Shown here piece by piece: positions 32,299 through 45,706 of a DNA stretch of 64,000 bases. A program made the translations under genes and the position numbers. How positions within the stretch are numbered: the stretch's first letter is position 1; each line of letters starts with the position of its first letter. The stretch spans positions 266,547 to 330,546 of the forward strand of contig OZ253546.1 in NCBI GenBank assembly GCA_965262585.1, given 5' to 3'. Source of the stretch: Candidatus Poriferihabitaceae bacterium. Its GTDB lineage: Bacteria > Pseudomonadota > Gammaproteobacteria > Arenicellales > Poriferihabitantaceae. The notes under the pieces were generated by a model, which did not search any database, was not told the origin of the DNA, and was given only the letters and a program-made list of their open reading frames with translations.

Positions 32299-33906
32299 CT
32301 ACATCCGAAATACGCCGAATTGGGTCGGCTCGATGGGCGCATTAAGCGCGGCGGATATTCCCAATGCCAGTACCTTGCGGGTATCGATTGGGTCGATGAT
32401 GCCGTCGTCCCACAACCGCGCGCTGGCGTAATACGGATTGCCTTGACGTTCGTATTGTTCGCGGATCGTTTGATTGAATTTTTGTTTTTCCGCTTCGTCC
32501 CATAGTTCCCCGGATGCCGCCAGGGAATCCGACTTGACGCGGGTTAATACGCTCGCCGCTTGCTCGCCTCCCATTACCGAAACCCGCGCGTTTGGCCACA
32601 TCCATAAAAATCGTCCACCGTAAGCGCGACCACACATGGCGTAATTGCCCGCGCCAAAACTGCCGCCGACCACCACCGTGAACTTTGGAACTTTCGCGCA
32701 CGCCACCGCGTTCACCATTTTAGCGCCGTCTTTGGCAATACCGCCGGCCTCGGCTTTTTTTCCGACCATAAAGCCGGTGATGTTTTGCAAAAATATCAAC
32801 GGCACGCCACGCTGTGCGCATAACTCGATAAAGTGCGCGCCCTTGAGCGCCGACTCCGAAAACAGGATGCCGTTGTTGGCGACGATGCCGACCGGATACC
32901 CGTGCAGGTGCGCGAATCCGCATACCAGAGTCGCGCCGTATAATTGCTTGAATTGATCGAATTCGCTGCCATCCGTCAGGCGGGCGATCAGTTGGCAAAT
33001 GTCGAACGGCTTGCGCGAATCCTGCGGCACTATGCCGCGAAGTTGTTCGGCGGGATAAAGCGGTTCGACCGGCGGCTTCAATTTCAATTCGACTTTTTTA
33101 TTGCGGTTGAGGTTGGCGACGATGCGGCGCGCCAATCCCAAGGCGTCGGCGTCGTTTTCGGCGTAGTGGTCGACGACGCCCGAAGTGCGCGCGTGCAAAT
33201 CAGCACCACCCAACTCCTCGGCGCTGACCTGTTCGCCGGTGGCGGCGGCCACCAACGGCGGGCCACCGAGAAAAATCGTGCCTTGTTTCTTGACGATGAT
33301 GCTCTCGTCCGACATCGCCGGCACATACGCACCGCCGGCGGTGCACGAACCCATCACCACCGCAATCTGCGCGATGCCGGCGGCGGACAAATTGGCTTGA
33401 TTATAAAAAATCCGCCCAAAGTGATCGCGGTCAGGAAACACCTCATCTTGGCACGGCAAATAGGCGCCGCCGGAGTCGACCAAATAGATACACGGTAGGT
33501 GGTTTTGCGCGGCGATTTCTTGAGCGCGCAAATGTTTTTTGACCGTCAACGGATAGTATGCGCCGCCCTTGACGGTGGCATCATTGGCGATGATCACGCA
33601 TTCCTGCCCGGCGACCACTCCAATGCCGCAAATCAACCCGGCGGCAGGCACCTCGCTTTCATACACTTGATACGCCGCCAACTGCGACAACTCCAAAAAC
33701 GGCGTCGCCGGATCAAGCAAACGACGAACCCGCTCCCGAGGAAGAAGTTTGCCACGAGCAAGATGTTTCTCCCGCGCCCGTTCACCCCCACCCAGCGCAA
33801 TACCCGCAACCCGCTCACGCAACTCGTCACACAGCCGCTCCATCCATTGACGATTGGCAATGAAAGATTCGTCTTTCGGATTAACGTTGTTTTCTATGAC
33901 GGACAT
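32299..33906 (-). CDS. liuB: 3-methylcrotonyl-CoA carboxylase beta subunit (carboxyltransferase)
   Basis: 535 aa. Carboxyltransferase pattern ([28 protein letters not shown]). Lies adjacent to the alpha subunit. Confidence 0.9.
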
Positions 33907-33993
33907 ATTTGGTTTTTAATTCGACGGAACAACAAGGTTAAATTGACAGAGCGATAACGCAGTAATCCAACAGTTTTGCGGCATGCCTAAGCA

Positions 33994-34785
33994 CTACTCT
34001 CGGATGTCGTGCCGAACGGGGAAAGGAATTTCCCCCCACCCCTTCGCATTTTCGTTTTCGGGATAATCCATCATGATACTTACAAAGACGGGAACCAGAA
34101 TTTCAAGAATTTCGATGCCGTTTTCAACTTGGCTATTATTAATCGGATCTAAATTGAAATCACCATGCCGGGTAGCACCGCCATGCATAAGTTGATTGCG
34201 CAGTACATACAGGCGGTCAAAAACTATTTCCAATATGTAGGATATTTTGTGTGGTTCGATTTGTTTATCGGTTGCCACCAATTTCAGTGCTATCTGCTGG
34301 CGTTCCTCTTCAAACCTTTTGCACTCTTGCGATTTTTTCCATTGTTTCAGATCAAACTTTTTATTTTTGAGATTCTTAATATACATCCAAAATCCTGCAA
34401 AAACATAGCGATTGTCGGTTAGGTACTGAATTGCTTTGTTGAATTTAGAAATCTTAAAAGAATCGCCTATTTGTTCAGGGTCAAGGCGCGATAAACTTGA
34501 TAGGTATTTGCCAAAAGTGTCCCTCTCATAAGGTCGTTTACTGTCGACGCACCGGTCATTAGCATAGGCAGAATTAAACGCTATCCACAGCAAGATAAAT
34601 TTAACATCCGGGCTCTTTTCTAATTCCGCCCTACCAAATCCGCTTATGGCTCGACGAATACGACGTTTCACTGGGTCATACTCATCACGGCCACCAAGTA
34701 GATTCTCAAATTGATCTTTCAGATCAGCGTATGTAGGGACTTTTTTCTTCATATAACTTTTTCTATGGTAGGTCTTTATGGACAT
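33994..34785 (-). CDS. Low-GC orphan protein with HEPN-like R-x4-H motif
   Basis: 263 aa. LYVLRNQLMHGGATRHG (R-N-Q-L-M-H, nt 34183-34200) fits the HEPN Rx4-6H signature. Predicted all-helical. G+C counted as 17/60 at 34321-34380 versus 42/60 at 35221-35280 in the neighbouring gene. Confidence 0.5.
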   Translation of the reverse strand: MSIKTYHRKSYMKKKVPTYADLKDQFENLLGGRDEYDPVKRRIRRAISGFGRAELEKSPDVKFILLWIAFNSAYANDRCVDSKRPYERDTFGKYLSSLSRLDPEQIGDSFKISKFNKAIQYLTDNRYVFAGFWMYIKNLKNKKFDLKQWKKSQECKRFEEERQQIALKLVATDKQIEPHKISYILEIVFDRLYVLRNQLMHGGATRHGDFNLDPINNSQVENGIEILEILVPVFVSIMMDYPENENAKGWGEIPFPVRHDIRE

Positions 34786-34856
34786 AATCGAATTACGCTA
34801 TCGCTAATTCGCTCAACTGGCTGTCGCTTCGCCAACCTACTCTACACTGTTCTTAA

Positions 34857-36056
34857 TCAAATCACCTCAACCGCCATCGCAACCGCCTCGCCGCCGCCGA
34901 TACAAAGCGATGCCAATCCTCGTTTGCCGTTGTTACGTTTCAACGCCGACAATAAGGTTGCCACAAGCCGTGCGCCGGAGGCGCCGACTGGGTGACCGAG
35001 GGCGCAGGCGCCGCCGTGGATGTTTACTTTTTCGTGGGGCAGGTTGAATTCTTTCATCGCCGCCATCGTGACCACCGCGAAGGCTTCGTTGATTTCATAC
35101 AGATCCACATCATCGGTATTCCAGCCGATGCGTTCCAGCAGGCCGCCGATTGCGCCGATCGGTGCGGTGGTGAACCACGCCGGGTCCTGGGCGTGGGAAC
35201 TATGGCCGACTATGCGCGCCAGCGGCGTGCAACCACGGCGTTCGGCTTCGGACAACGGCATCAGCACCAGTGCGGCGCCGCCATCGGAGATCGAACTCGA
35301 GTTGGCCGGGGTTACCGTGCCGTCCTTGCGGAAGGCGGGTTTCAGGTGCGGGACTTTGGCCGGGTCGGCAAGGCCGGGTTGTTCGTCTTCGACCACGGTG
35401 TGTTCAACGCCGCGCCGGTCTTTGAAAACCACCGGTGCGATTTCTTCCGCGAACCAGCCTTCGGCGATGGCGCGGTTGGCGCGGGCTAGAGATTCGAGCG
35501 CGAAAGCGTCCTGATGTTCGCGGCTGAAGTGATATTTACCGGCGCAGTCTTCGGCGAAATCTCCCATCAGGCGGCCGTCATAATGAATGTCTTCCAAGCC
35601 GTCGAGAAACATATGATCGCTGAGTCGTGCGTGGCCGAGGCGCAGGCCGCCCCGTGCACCGGTGAGTAAATACGGCGCGTTGCTCATGCTCTCCATGCCG
35701 CCGGCCACCATCACCGTAGCGGAACCGGCGCGGATCGCATCGTGTGCATACATCGCCGCTTTCAATCCCGACCCGCACATCTTGTTGATTGTGGTGGTGC
35801 CTGCGGATACCGGCACCCCGCCACCCATCGCCGCTTGACGCGCCGGGGCATTGCCGAGTCCGGCGGGCAGCACGCAGCCCATCACTACTTCATCGACATC
35901 CTCGCCTTTGAGCGCGCACCGTTTAAGCGCATCGGCGATGGCCACCGCGCCGAGTTGCGTGGCACTGCGCGGCTGCAATGCACCGAGGAAGCCGCCAATC
36001 GGTGTGCGGGCGGCGGCGACGATGACCACCGGGTCTTTGGGTTGGTTGTTCGACAT
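34857..36056 (-). CDS. Acetyl-CoA C-acetyltransferase (thiolase II)
   Basis: Active-site Cys segment INKMCGSGLKA, and C-terminal NIHGGACALGHPVGASG and CIGGGEAVAM. Confidence 0.9.
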   Translation of the reverse strand: MSNNQPKDPVVIVAAARTPIGGFLGALQPRSATQLGAVAIADALKRCALKGEDVDEVVMGCVLPAGLGNAPARQAAMGGGVPVSAGTTTINKMCGSGLKAAMYAHDAIRAGSATVMVAGGMESMSNAPYLLTGARGGLRLGHARLSDHMFLDGLEDIHYDGRLMGDFAEDCAGKYHFSREHQDAFALESLARANRAIAEGWFAEEIAPVVFKDRRGVEHTVVEDEQPGLADPAKVPHLKPAFRKDGTVTPANSSSISDGGAALVLMPLSEAERRGCTPLARIVGHSSHAQDPAWFTTAPIGAIGGLLERIGWNTDDVDLYEINEAFAVVTMAAMKEFNLPHEKVNIHGGACALGHPVGASGARLVATLLSALKRNNGKRGLASLCIGGGEAVAMAVEVI

Positions 36057-43727: not shown

Positions 43728-44132
43728 ATGAACAAGACCGCCGAGACGAGCAACACCAATATCGATAAATTCATCGACTCCGATGGCCTCGACAGCAGCC
43801 GCGAACAGGAAATCGGCCAACACATCGGCTATCGCTACGATGTCAATCTAGTGCCGGACCTGGCGCGCTGTCCGCCTTTTCTGAAAAAATATATGGCGAT
43901 GATGGGGTGGACAGACCTCAACTGGCTCGAGGATGTACACATGGGCTACGAAGAAGGCCAACCGGCGGTATTCGACCGCAACATCAACGCCTGGGTGCGC
44001 GTGCCGGCGGACTTAAAACTCCCCGACAACCAACAAGACCGCGACATGATCGCACGAGAATTATTAATCAAGTTTCAGATGTCCGAATCCCATCCGATGG
44101 TGGAATTGATGAATGCGTATCGGAAGTTTTGA
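43728..44132 (+). CDS. Hypothetical 134-aa protein translationally coupled to mgsC
   Basis: An AGGAGA Shine-Dalgarno lies 6 nt before the ATG, which is 9 nt after the mgsC stop. Intermediate G+C (32/60 at 43741-43800, 27/60 at 44041-44100). No motif recognised. Confidence 0.55.
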   Translation: MNKTAETSNTNIDKFIDSDGLDSSREQEIGQHIGYRYDVNLVPDLARCPPFLKKYMAMMGWTDLNWLEDVHMGYEEGQPAVFDRNINAWVRVPADLKLPDNQQDRDMIARELLIKFQMSESHPMVELMNAYRKF

Positions 44133-44155
44133 TTCCGTGGCGATTAGAGGTAAGG

Positions 44156-44161
44156 TATAAT
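44156..44161 (+). promoter_or_regulatory. Possible -10 box (TATAAT) giving a near-leaderless methyltransferase transcript
   Basis: A perfect TATAAT ends 10 nt before ATG 44172, and no Shine-Dalgarno lies between them. Confidence 0.3.
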
Positions 44162-44171
44162 TCCGCGCACT

Positions 44172-45035
44172 ATGAAAGCACACTATTCCACGATTGGAGC
44201 CAGGGTTTACGCGGGAGATATTGTTGAAACATTAAACTCATTCCCGGACGAATGTGTCGATCTAATTTTTGCCGATCCCCCTTATAACTTATCCAACGGC
44301 GGGTTCACCTGTCACGCTGGAAAACGAGTTAGTGTAAACAAAGGGAAATGGGATAAAAGTAACGGCTTTGATGCGGATTTTGATTTTCACTGGAACTGGA
44401 TTGAAGCGTGTCGGCGTGTCCTGAAACCAAACGGATCGTTGTGGATTTCCGGGACATATCACTCGGTTTATATTTGCGGATATGCGCTACAGAAACAGGG
44501 CTGGCATTTTGTAAATGATATTTGTTGGTTTAAACCAAACGCGGCGCCGAATCTTGCCTGCCGAATGTTTACCGCAAGCCATGAAACGTTATTGTGGGTA
44601 CGAAAAAGCAAAAAATCTAAGCATTACTTTGATTATCCGACTGTCCGAGATCGCCATTGGGAGAATGACTTTATTAAAAAACCAAACAAACAAATGCGAA
44701 GCGTTTGGGCAATAGGTACGCCTAAACCACAAGAGAAAACTCACGGCAAGCACCCCGCCCAAAAACCAGAAGCATTACTGGAAAGAATCATATTGGCATG
44801 CAGCAAGAAAAACGATATTGTTCTCGATCCGTTTTGCGGTAGTGCAACTACCGGAGTAGTCGCTCTTCGCCATGACCGTCGGTTTGTCGGCATTGATTCG
44901 GAAATTGATTATCTGAATACGATGGCAATACCTAGAATTAAAGCCAGTAAGCACGATCATCCTTGGCCCAAAGCGGCTAAATCCAGAAAATTTACCGTAC
45001 AACAACAAAAGGCAGGATATGCACTGTTGCCGTAA
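44172..45035 (+). CDS. Beta-class N6-adenine DNA methyltransferase, DpnA / M.DpnIIB-like (probable GATC specificity)
   Basis: Motif IV IFADPPYNLSNGG precedes motif I LDPFCGSATTGVVA, which is the beta-class order. Extended similarity to DpnA as I remember it (KGKWDK, LKPNGSLWISG, PNAAPNLACRMFTASHETLLW, GKHPAQKPEALLERIILA). Confidence 0.8.
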   Translation: MKAHYSTIGARVYAGDIVETLNSFPDECVDLIFADPPYNLSNGGFTCHAGKRVSVNKGKWDKSNGFDADFDFHWNWIEACRRVLKPNGSLWISGTYHSVYICGYALQKQGWHFVNDICWFKPNAAPNLACRMFTASHETLLWVRKSKKSKHYFDYPTVRDRHWENDFIKKPNKQMRSVWAIGTPKPQEKTHGKHPAQKPEALLERIILACSKKNDIVLDPFCGSATTGVVALRHDRRFVGIDSEIDYLNTMAIPRIKASKHDHPWPKAAKSRKFTVQQQKAGYALLP

Positions 45036-45046
45036 TTTGAAAAATC

Positions 45047-45673
45047 ATGGATAAAAAAGAAGCAATCACCCGACTTTTAGAGATAAAAGGCAGAAACTTA
45101 CATGAATTAGCGGAAGAATATGAAGTGACTGTGGCCACCCCACGTGGAACTCAAAATAAGGGATGGGCCGGTCATGTATGCGAGCGCCACCTTGGTTTAG
45201 CACTTAACTCATCGCGAAGTCCCAATATGGGATCGTGGGAACTGAAAAGCACATCGCTAAAATATTTGGAAAGCGGAAAACTTTCCGTCAAAGAAACGAT
45301 GGCTATAACTATGATTGACCCTGTAGAGGTACGCCAAACGGAATTTGAACAAAGTCATATGCTAGCGAAACTCAATAAGGCCGTGGTCGTTGTACGAACA
45401 GTTGGAGAAAATTTCCGAGACCCAAGTTTTGTTCATTCTGTCATTGAAATCGAACTTGATGATGACCTATATGCAGCGGTAAAGGCGGACTACGATTTAG
45501 TGCGAAATATCCTGATCAAAGATCCGGAAAATGGATTCAGTAATCTAACCGGAAAAATGGGGTATTACATACAACCACGAACAAAAGGAGTCGGGCATGG
45601 AAGCATATCCAGAGCATTTTACGCTCGACCGAGATTTTTGAGGCTATTCTTGTCTTTAGACTCGAGTGTGTGA
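45047..45673 (+). CDS. MutH/Sau3AI-family endonuclease (probable GATC-specific restriction or nicking enzyme)
   Basis: Collinear by eye with E. coli MutH: LHELAEEY..NKGWAGHVCERHLG..GSWELKS..KLNKAVVVV..GYYIQPRTKG..RAFYARPRF. Confidence 0.7.
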   Translation: MDKKEAITRLLEIKGRNLHELAEEYEVTVATPRGTQNKGWAGHVCERHLGLALNSSRSPNMGSWELKSTSLKYLESGKLSVKETMAITMIDPVEVRQTEFEQSHMLAKLNKAVVVVRTVGENFRDPSFVHSVIEIELDDDLYAAVKADYDLVRNILIKDPENGFSNLTGKMGYYIQPRTKGVGHGSISRAFYARPRFLRLFLSLDSSV

Positions 45674-45706
45674 TTAAACGCCTTCACTAGTACGTTGATA
45701 CCACCG

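Follow-up and report, generated by a model that had tools for sequence, protein, structure and literature searches.

A recent single-gene insertion in a liu operon encodes a probable solitary HEPN protein with a putative defence or toxin function

The 64,000-nucleotide stretch of the Candidatus Poriferihabitaceae bacterium genome considered here (GenBank assembly GCA_965262585.1, contig OZ253546.1, positions 266,547 to 330,546 of the forward strand; hereafter the window, with positions counted from its first letter) contains a leucine- and isovalerate-catabolism (liu) operon that accommodates, between its thiolase gene and the gene for the beta subunit of methylcrotonyl-CoA carboxylase (MCC-beta), a recently acquired 907-bp segment with a single gene. 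Sequence comparisons indicate that the encoded 263-residue protein very probably belongs to the HEPN superfamily. The explanation that we favor, at somewhat better than even confidence, is that the segment is a promoter-less single-gene cassette specifying a latent solo HEPN RNase with a defence or toxin function of the kind known from HepS, ApeA, and DARNA.

Horizontal acquisition of the segment, which the original prediction had claimed from its composition, is directly evidenced by empty sites in two close relatives, viz., L198 (a 1.09-Mb contig) and L199 (a 2.64-Mb contig labelled circular), both recognized as contigs encoding an identical GlnA-like protein 3.5 kb away. In these, thiolase is followed by MCC-beta across a 49-bp spacer without the HEPN gene. 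Both are collinear with the window in blastn comparisons at 97-98% identity over more than 20 kb, and the alignments end at 33936 and restart at 34844. Because two relatives this similar in the flanks have only the 49-bp spacer, the 907 bp in between constitute a clean, strain-specific insertion, and because the flanks remain 97-98% identical to those of the empty-site strains, the insertion is recent. It replaced 5 bp of the native spacer (ATCGA on the plus strand) and is made up of a 58-nt leader, a 792-nt open reading frame (ORF), and a 57-nt trailer. These boundaries trim the AT-rich block of about 950 bp (33907-34856) to which the foreign origin had been ascribed: the block is indeed poor in G+C, but only 907 bp of it are foreign, the other 13 and 30 nt being native. 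In exact-sequence cluster look-ups, the proteins of the neighboring genes in the window have relatives of at least 90% identity on further long contigs in ENA, whereas the HEPN protein stands as a singleton. The features of the locus are as follows.

33937..34843, minus strand: strain-specific insertion of 907 bp, GC 0.415, single gene (blastn against two relatives and junction alignment)
33994..34785, minus strand: HEPN-family ORF, 263 aa (ORF list and family search; alternative start M12 at 34752)
34786..34843, minus strand: foreign 5' leader, 58 nt (blastn boundaries; folding z -1.41)
33937..33993, minus strand: foreign 3' trailer, 57 nt (blastn boundaries; folding z +0.17)
34844..34856, minus strand: native 13 nt after the thiolase stop codon, kept from the original spacer (junction alignment)
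33907..33936, minus strand: native 30 nt upstream of the MCC-beta ATG, kept from the original spacer (junction alignment)
34857..36056, minus strand: thiolase (acetyl-CoA acetyltransferase), the operon gene upstream of the ORF (Pfam Thiolase_N and Thiolase_C)
32299..33906, minus strand: methylcrotonyl-CoA carboxylase beta subunit (carboxyltransferase), downstream of the ORF (Pfam Carboxyl_trans, E 9e-154)

The single 263-codon ORF with an LRNQLMHGG stretch that had been described between thiolase and MCC-beta is present as stated, the stretch forming residues 195-203, and Pfam agrees with the naming of both flanking genes. The block 33907-34856 has a G+C content of 0.411, compared with a mean of 0.565 (standard deviation 0.037) for 950-bp stretches across the window; it is the lowest of them, and the 0.1% that are equally low all overlap it. 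Our recount reproduced the contrast previously noted between 34321-34380 (17/60 G+C) and 35221-35280 (42/60). The G+C content at third codon positions (GC3) is 0.417 in the ORF versus 0.634-0.715 in its liu operon neighbors, and among the 37 ORFs of at least 250 aa in the window (mean 0.658, standard deviation 0.079) the only GC3 outliers are the HEPN ORF and a methyltransferase ORF at 44 kb. Elsewhere, too, the HEPN genes of this family generally lie 0.4-15 GC points below their flanks. At the composition of the ORF, the probability of 263 codons staying open by chance is about 1e-8.

No target-site duplication, terminal (inverted) repeat, or mobility gene was found at the 907-bp insertion, and by default we infer that it arrived through illegitimate recombination. 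Homologous import from a divergent donor was considered but finds no support, as identity in the flanks is flat at 93-100% in 250-bp steps and does not fall towards the junctions. An origin as an integron cassette was rejected. Such a cassette would have an attC site (RYYYAAC...GTTRRRY) at its 3' end and would enter at G|TT without removing target bases, whereas the insert lacks an attC-like pair, such pairs are no feature of 80 family loci (0-1 found versus 0.4 expected), and the insertion removed 5 bp of its target. The first bases of the insert, GTTAAAT (33937-33943, plus strand), do correspond to the integron core-site consensus GTTRRRY exactly at the junction, probably by chance; the motif occurs three times per strand inside the insert. 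The native 30 nt before MCC-beta differ from those of both empty-site relatives by two substitutions and a 1-nt deletion, a density above the 2-3% divergence of the flanks, which could be either scarring from the insertion or plain noise.

The insertion has the orientation of its host operon, as the original prediction had it, with the ORF and all the liu genes on the minus strand in the order (by Pfam) GntR/FCD regulator, isovaleryl-CoA dehydrogenase (IVD), thiolase, the ORF, MCC-beta, the MCC alpha subunit (MCC-alpha), and HMG-CoA lyase. Between 33500 and 35300, scans revealed neither a sigma-70-like promoter nor an intrinsic terminator. The predicted folding of the two spacers cannot be told apart from that of shuffled sequence, and no Rfam family occurs nearby, which leaves an RNA antitoxin (type III or AbiF-like) as well as an intrinsic terminator without support. 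The MCC and HMG-CoA lyase genes downstream of the insertion are intact and presumably still need the operon promoter. Given this together with the shared strand and the absence of a detectable promoter or terminator, the most economical inference is that the HEPN gene is transcribed by read-through from the liu promoter, and its co-transcription with liu is accordingly plausible.

The same placement raises the alternative that the gene has been domesticated as an RNA-processing or regulatory factor for leucine catabolism, acting, for instance, on the polycistronic liu mRNA. It does sit inside the operon on the same strand with short spacers and no terminator, and the native 30 nt before MCC-beta were preserved. 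We nevertheless consider domestication very unlikely, as a homolog of the HEPN gene is missing from all 80 liu operons of other species that were compared, two strains 97-98% identical do without the gene, its composition is foreign, and members of its family occur in unrelated contexts. In the liu operons of other species the slot between thiolase and MCC-beta consists of 600-2,000 bp of native-GC DNA, often with a second acyl-CoA dehydrogenase; several relatives have thiolase and a second acyl-CoA dehydrogenase between IVD and MCC-beta, where the window operon has thiolase. MCC-alpha directly abuts MCC-beta in the window (32298/32299), and many related operons (L009-L088) have a gap of about 800 bp at this point, which presumably houses a methylglutaconyl-CoA hydratase gene.

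The affiliation of the protein with the HEPN superfamily is indicated first by its motif. HEPN domains have an Rx4-6H motif in which the arginine is usually followed by a polar residue (N, D, or H). The motif is positioned at the end of core helix 3 and the start of the loop to helix 4, and inserts between core helices 2 and 3 are common (PMC3710099). The corresponding elements of the window protein are as follows.

34177..34200, minus strand: predicted catalytic Rx4H motif R196-N-Q-L-M-H201-G-G203 at the end of core helix 3 (codons read; conserved in the family)
34564..34662, minus strand: predicted core helices 1 and 2, residues 42-74 (conserved R42, R45, W49 (G here), D60, W67, F70, N71, and Y74)
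34255..34563, minus strand: helical insert of about 100 aa, residues 75-177, between core helices 2 and 3 (conserved N125, W133, and W149)

An AlphaFold2 model based on 33 homologs (pLDDT 84.5, pTM 0.84) is all-helical, in line with the helical character anticipated for the protein, and runs through helices 38-55 and 59-74, the helical insert of about 100 residues, helix 178-200, a loop (201-214), and helix 215-240. In this predicted structure RNQLMH falls at the end of helix 178-200, ahead of the last long helix, in agreement with the published description of HEPN domains (PMC3710099). In an alignment (A2) of 127 family representatives with pairwise identity of at most 50%, R45, W67, R196, and G202 are invariant; N197 (122/127), Q198, H201, N71, and W133 (126/127 each) are nearly so; and nearly invariant, too, are R42, W49, D60, Y74, N125, W149, and R191. 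The arginine and histidine singled out in the original prediction are, therefore, retained in practically every representative, with the motif reading RNQLMH in the window protein.

Profile searches point in the same direction. When the 127 members were scanned singly, the only recurrent Pfam matches were to HEPN models, viz., HEPN_RiboL-PSP (19 members, best E 1e-6; the matches cover the motif region, and most of those seen fall below the 28.4-bit cut-off), HEPN_Apea (two), HEPN_Cthe2314 (one), and HEPN_LA2681 (one). The only recurrent PADLOC matches of family members were weak ones (best E 1e-4) to the CARF_HEPN and Csx1 models, with no CARF domain present. The best PDB match of the family profile at the motif is the antiviral Thr1ApeA (9hxl; hmmsearch E 0.05-0.08). 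Compared by hhalign with six Thr1ApeA homologs from plasmids (521-548 aa, full-length match to 9hxl with E 6e-133), A2 scored a probability of 91% (E 1e-6), or 93% (3e-7) against the C-terminal domain alone, over 30 columns comprising helix 3 and the pattern FxRLYxxRNxxxHGGxT. Homologs on plasmids are already named 'HEPN domain-containing protein' by PGAP. With motif conservation, helix placement, and these HEPN-only matches in agreement, the HEPN-type motif reported earlier stands, and a HEPN fold would be expected for the protein. The six Thr1ApeA homologs (L112-L117: NZ_AP023336.1, NZ_CP109584.1, NZ_CP085174.1, NZ_CP012182.1, NZ_CP155790.1, and NZ_CP013744.1) are annotated as 'integrase' or 'hypothetical protein' and have no Pfam match at E <=0.01, not even the expected HEPN_Apea; hence, this clade is invisible to Pfam-based annotation.

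The family comprises at least 2,359 proteins at E <=1e-3 in a 90%-clustered collection (917 clusters at 50% identity), most of them 205-260 aa long and mostly from Proteobacteria, and no curated model exists for it in Pfam, NCBIfam, or PADLOC. The nearest relatives of the window protein are 43-44% identical (E 2e-36), with none above 44% among 5.8 billion clusters. Four tandem-duplicated homologs (P0122, P0125, P0199, and P0236; 364-492 aa) have one RN-type Rx4H motif per half, in support of a joint action of two HEPN domains. Fusion variants include P0153, with an unannotated N-terminal domain of about 300 aa, P0243, with a transmembrane segment and a SHOCT domain, and P0088/P0128, with an N-terminal HTH_3 domain.

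The surroundings of the relatives include mobile and defence-type genes. The subfamily closest to the window protein is consistently tied to mobile elements: one member lies in a Mu-like prophage between repressor/SNase genes and Mom, two follow serine resolvase genes at a distance of about 80 bp, one of them adjoining a Tn3-type transposase fragment, one is found in an integrase/HigB island, and one occurs amid PIN, GIY-YIG, and AAA_15/DUF4276 genes. Twenty-four plasmids, 15 of them conjugative and mostly alphaproteobacterial, carry a family gene, in the neighborhood of WYL regulators, TM0106 RecB-like nucleases, DUF3883, SbcCD-like genes, ParDE and HipA toxin-antitoxin genes, and IS elements; a member is also present on eight IMG/VR contigs. 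In 82 additional loci the sole recurrent immediate neighbor is a gene coding for a WYL+WCX protein of the BrxR/CapW type, adjacent in 16 of the 82, whereas every other Pfam neighbor family occurs at most four times. It lies upstream on the same strand in 14 of the 16, with a gap of at most 25 bp in 12 of those 14, suggesting a two-gene wHTH-WYL-WCX/HEPN operon variant. The searchable literature yielded no description of a WYL-HEPN pair of this type, which is absence of evidence only. The survey of homologs proposed with the original prediction thus returned prophage, resolvase, island, conjugative-plasmid, and BrxR-type WYL settings, but also many members standing alone among housekeeping genes.

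Some further details of these neighborhoods deserve mention. The loci with an adjacent WYL+WCX gene were drawn from L118-L197, L089-L094, L097, and L106. Three close relatives (L101:6900-7000, L102:6916-7000, and L103:6920-7000) have in common, ahead of the HEPN gene, a conserved non-coding segment of about 90 bp, although one of them lies in the Mu-like prophage and the other two in resolvase modules. This segment, absent from the window, may be a promoter/operator or a res-like site travelling with the gene. On two sphingomonad plasmids (L099, NZ_CP102668.1, and L109, NZ_CP098496.1), a DUF3883 gene, whose product is a predicted restriction-endonuclease-like domain, begins 3-5 bp behind the HEPN gene, and HEPN-DUF3883 may form a separate module on conjugative plasmids. 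In L099 the HEPN gene is preceded by an LPD7 gene, directly after the gene for a type IV secretion system coupling protein.

In the window itself, genes for MNT, a second HEPN protein, WYL, a resolvase, or DUF3883 are found neither adjacent to the ORF nor anywhere in the 64 kb, and WYL reference proteins gave no tblastn match to it; the earlier claim that no partner gene is adjacent thus extends to the whole window. Accordingly, the locus departs from the two-gene HEPN-MNT pattern, as had been pointed out. This is, however, not unusual, because solitary HEPN defence proteins are established in the form of HepS, ApeA, and DARNA.

Characterized HEPN enzymes are metal-independent RNases with two Rx4-6H motifs that meet across a dimer interface (PMC13043305; DARNA paper). 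By analogy, we propose that the window protein is a metal-independent endoribonuclease, whose active site would be composed of two copies of R196-x4-H201 joined in a homodimer or higher oligomer. Since this would be an RNase of such a kind without an antitoxin, it would need to be latent, and we suggest that it is kept so by autoinhibition, possibly via the roughly 100-aa helical insert that separates core helices 2 and 3. Candidate autoinhibitory or sensing elements are this insert, with N125, W133, and W149, and the N-terminal R42/R45/W49/D60/N71/Y74 cluster. A trigger associated with infection or stress would switch the protein on, and the outcome would be abortive-infection-type defence or a toxin function, as with HepS, ApeA, and DARNA. 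More tentatively, the family might constitute a new abortive-infection system consisting of one gene, with a built-in sensor insert and, optionally, a BrxR-type WYL repressor. The window would then preserve an event rare in nature: such an effector, entering as a promoter-less cassette, had its expression tied to leucine/isovalerate catabolism.

The working model takes after HepS ('HEPN Solo'), a defence element in the Salmonella prophage Gifsy-1 and one of the closest known systems: the sites of its tetramer stay occluded until a phage tail protein opens them (PMC13043305), and its latent, autoinhibited oligomer that cleaves RNA upon a phage trigger is the scheme adopted here for the window protein. 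It is also a stand-alone HEPN protein of less than 250 aa with a single Rx4-6H motif and no conserved partner or inhibitor, encoded by an accessory gene on mobile elements (PMC13043305). In contrast to HepS, where the motif is R100-H105, the window protein has R196-H201, its family has the insert of about 100 aa and the conserved N-terminal R/R/W/D/N/Y cluster, and about 20% of the family is paired with a WYL regulator. Identity with HepS was rejected on architecture, the different motif position, and the lack of detectable similarity. HepS chains (9OIK and related) gave no match in PDB profile searches with A1 and A2 (E <=10), and HepS is absent among the 50 listed of 222 Foldseek matches, its presence in the searched PDB copy being unconfirmed.

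ApeA, a single-protein HEPN anticodon nuclease defence (PDB 9hxl, 9hxd) activated by deoxydinucleotides (bioRxiv 10.64898/2026.01.26.701840), shows the nearest sequence relationship detectable for the catalytic helix of the family and is likewise a single-gene abortive-infection system without an antitoxin. However, ApeA proteins are 520-590 aa long, begin with a predominantly beta domain of some 300 aa (ApeA-NTD1), possess a ligand pocket, and assemble into doughnut-shaped oligomers, whereas the window protein, at 263 aa, and its family, mostly at 205-260 aa, lack such an N-terminal beta domain. DARNA is activated by ssDNA (DARNA paper); identity with DARNA/PD-T7-3 was ruled out by architecture and the absence of similarity. 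The HEPN-MNT type II/VII toxin-antitoxin systems (HepT/MntA, DUF86) likewise have a small HEPN protein with an Rx4H motif, in their case an RNase toxin, and occur on mobile elements, including a Tn3-family transposon (PMC7157771), but those systems require an adjacent MNT nucleotidyltransferase antitoxin, and no MNT gene (NTP_transf_2) was found in the window or among 136 neighbor ORFs of family members; moreover, neither the window protein nor family members match the Pfam HEPN/DUF86 model. The regulator-then-effector layout of 16 of the 82 loci recalls BrxR/CapW operons, as well as Cas13d with WYL1, and BrxR-family regulators co-localize with diverse phage defence systems (PMC9122601); the window copy and about 80% of family loci differ in having no WYL gene. 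RiboL-PSP-HEPN (PF18735) is the commonest Pfam match of the family (19/127, over the motif region), but it is defined by an endoribonuclease L-PSP fusion and a ParB operon, neither of which is seen here, and the window protein itself has no match to it. The lactococcal AbiD/F/J/U2/V proteins are known solitary HEPN defence proteins (PMC3710099), and the window protein matches none of the PADLOC models of AbiD/F, AbiJ, AbiU2, AbiV, PD-T7-3/DARNA, RloC/PrrC, Cas13, and Csm6/Csx1. As the features that define them were looked for and are absent, the protein falls outside the ApeA, HepT/DUF86, HepS, DARNA, and RiboL-PSP families.

Several observations weigh against the proposed latent HEPN nuclease. 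The first set concerns the identity of the protein. Searched alone, it has no match in Pfam, PADLOC, NCBIfam, PHROGs, or PDB, and the profile search that had been suggested as a check is thus positive for the family profile and its members and blank for the window protein itself. The ApeA similarity is local rather than domain-wide, being confined to the 30 columns around the catalytic helix, and greedier or global hhalign settings did not extend confident similarity past them. A structural check had likewise been suggested; it yielded a confident helical model with the motif at a helix end, but no confirmation of the fold, because Foldseek found nothing significant in PDB or BFVD (best E 0.78 and 0.23). 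TM scores are at most 0.31 among the matches listed, and the helix order is compatible with the four-helix up-down bundle of HEPN domains. The blank searches with the window protein alone and the lack of a HEPN match in Foldseek would suit an unrelated helical protein with a chance Rx4H motif. We regard this as improbable in view of the near-invariance of the motif across the diversity of 917 clusters, the exclusive recurrence of HEPN models in the profile matches, the hhalign probabilities of 91-93% to ApeA, the correct secondary-structure placement of the motif, and the existence of tandem-duplicated homologs.

The second set concerns function. No experiment on any family member and no paper describing the family was found in the searchable literature; none of 50,697 isolate phage genomes has a family member; the many members alone among housekeeping genes have been mentioned; and the cassette has no detectable promoter of its own. 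The window protein is, in addition, a long-branch singleton, in which two residues are uniquely replaced, viz., W49G (W in 125/127) and R217N (R in 116/127), both of which its closest relatives keep. Given these replacements, the window copy could be attenuated or decaying, and attenuation, if real, would also account for its tolerance inside an inducible operon. This opens the possibility, which we take seriously but hold to be less than likely, that the gene is a hitch-hiker, either neutral or in decay. It would then be a selfish toxin or stability gene that lost its mobile element, was captured by illegitimate recombination, is tolerated only through attenuation or poor expression, and now does nothing for its host. 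Such a history agrees with the unique loss of near-invariant residues, with a cassette devoid of its own promoter, mobility gene, or repeats, with the lack of any relative above 44% identity, with the restriction of the gene to one of the related genomes (the site is empty in L198 and L199, and the protein, P0001, is recorded on a single contig), and with closest relatives that adjoin resolvases, where Tn3-family transposons keep addiction modules (PMC7157771). On the other hand, the ORF is intact over a length that would hardly stay open by chance, the protein retains the complete catalytic motif and the majority of the other conserved positions, its AlphaFold model is a confident one, the recent insertion has left little time for decay, and W49G and R217N may be lineage features.

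It is also conceivable, but unlikely in our assessment, that the protein has a HEPN fold and is no defence nuclease, acting instead as a mobile-element-encoded counter-defence, plasmid-establishment, or nucleotide-signal-degrading factor, or as a ligand-binding regulator that uses the Rx4H pocket non-destructively. Several plasmid copies adjoin conjugation genes and a gene for the LPD7 polyvalent-protein domain, other copies stand beside ADP-ribosylglycohydrolases, HEPN domains can deplete cyclic oligoadenylate signals (DARNA paper), and the N-terminal R42/R45/W49/D60/N71/Y74 cluster is family-specific. Against this, the protein has RN-x3-H-G, which is the catalytic signature also present in the ApeA tRNase; links to BrxR-type WYL genes and accessory positions in prophages are typical of defence effectors; and no CARF, cyclase, or other signalling gene recurs nearby.

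Solitary HEPN defence proteins as such are already established; the novelty of the present case is modest and resides in a large, unmodelled, and experimentally unstudied family, its facultative WYL partner, and a clean, strain-polymorphic, single-gene insertion in a core catabolic operon. If the family is an active solo HEPN defence, a widespread system missed by Pfam, NCBIfam, and PADLOC would be added to defence annotation, and a compact protein of about 220 aa would become available for studying HEPN latency without an antitoxin. The near-isogenic genomes with and without the insertion amount to a natural experiment on its fitness cost, its polarity on leucine catabolism, and the borrowing of a metabolic promoter. 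If the gene is inert, this would be an ordinary case of strain-variable accessory DNA.

The other GC3 outlier of the window belongs to a second low-GC island (44131-45706, GC3 0.411), a type II restriction-modification (R-M) cassette with two genes.

44172-45035, plus strand: N6/N4 DNA methyltransferase (PADLOC MTase_II, E 3e-94)
45047-45673, plus strand: MutH/Sau3AI-like endonuclease (PADLOC REase_II, E 1e-10)

This R-M cassette is a confirmed defence system, in comparison to which the HEPN gene is a putative one, and we count the presence of this second strain-variable, low-GC cassette in favor of a defence role for the HEPN protein. As the R-M cassette is strain-variable and the HEPN insertion strain-specific, both composition outliers of the window are strain-variable cassettes between metabolic genes. 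The R-M cassette is present in L198 and absent in L199, where about 1 kb of other sequence stands in its place, and it lies between a glutamate-synthase-like gene cluster and sarcosine-oxidase-like genes.

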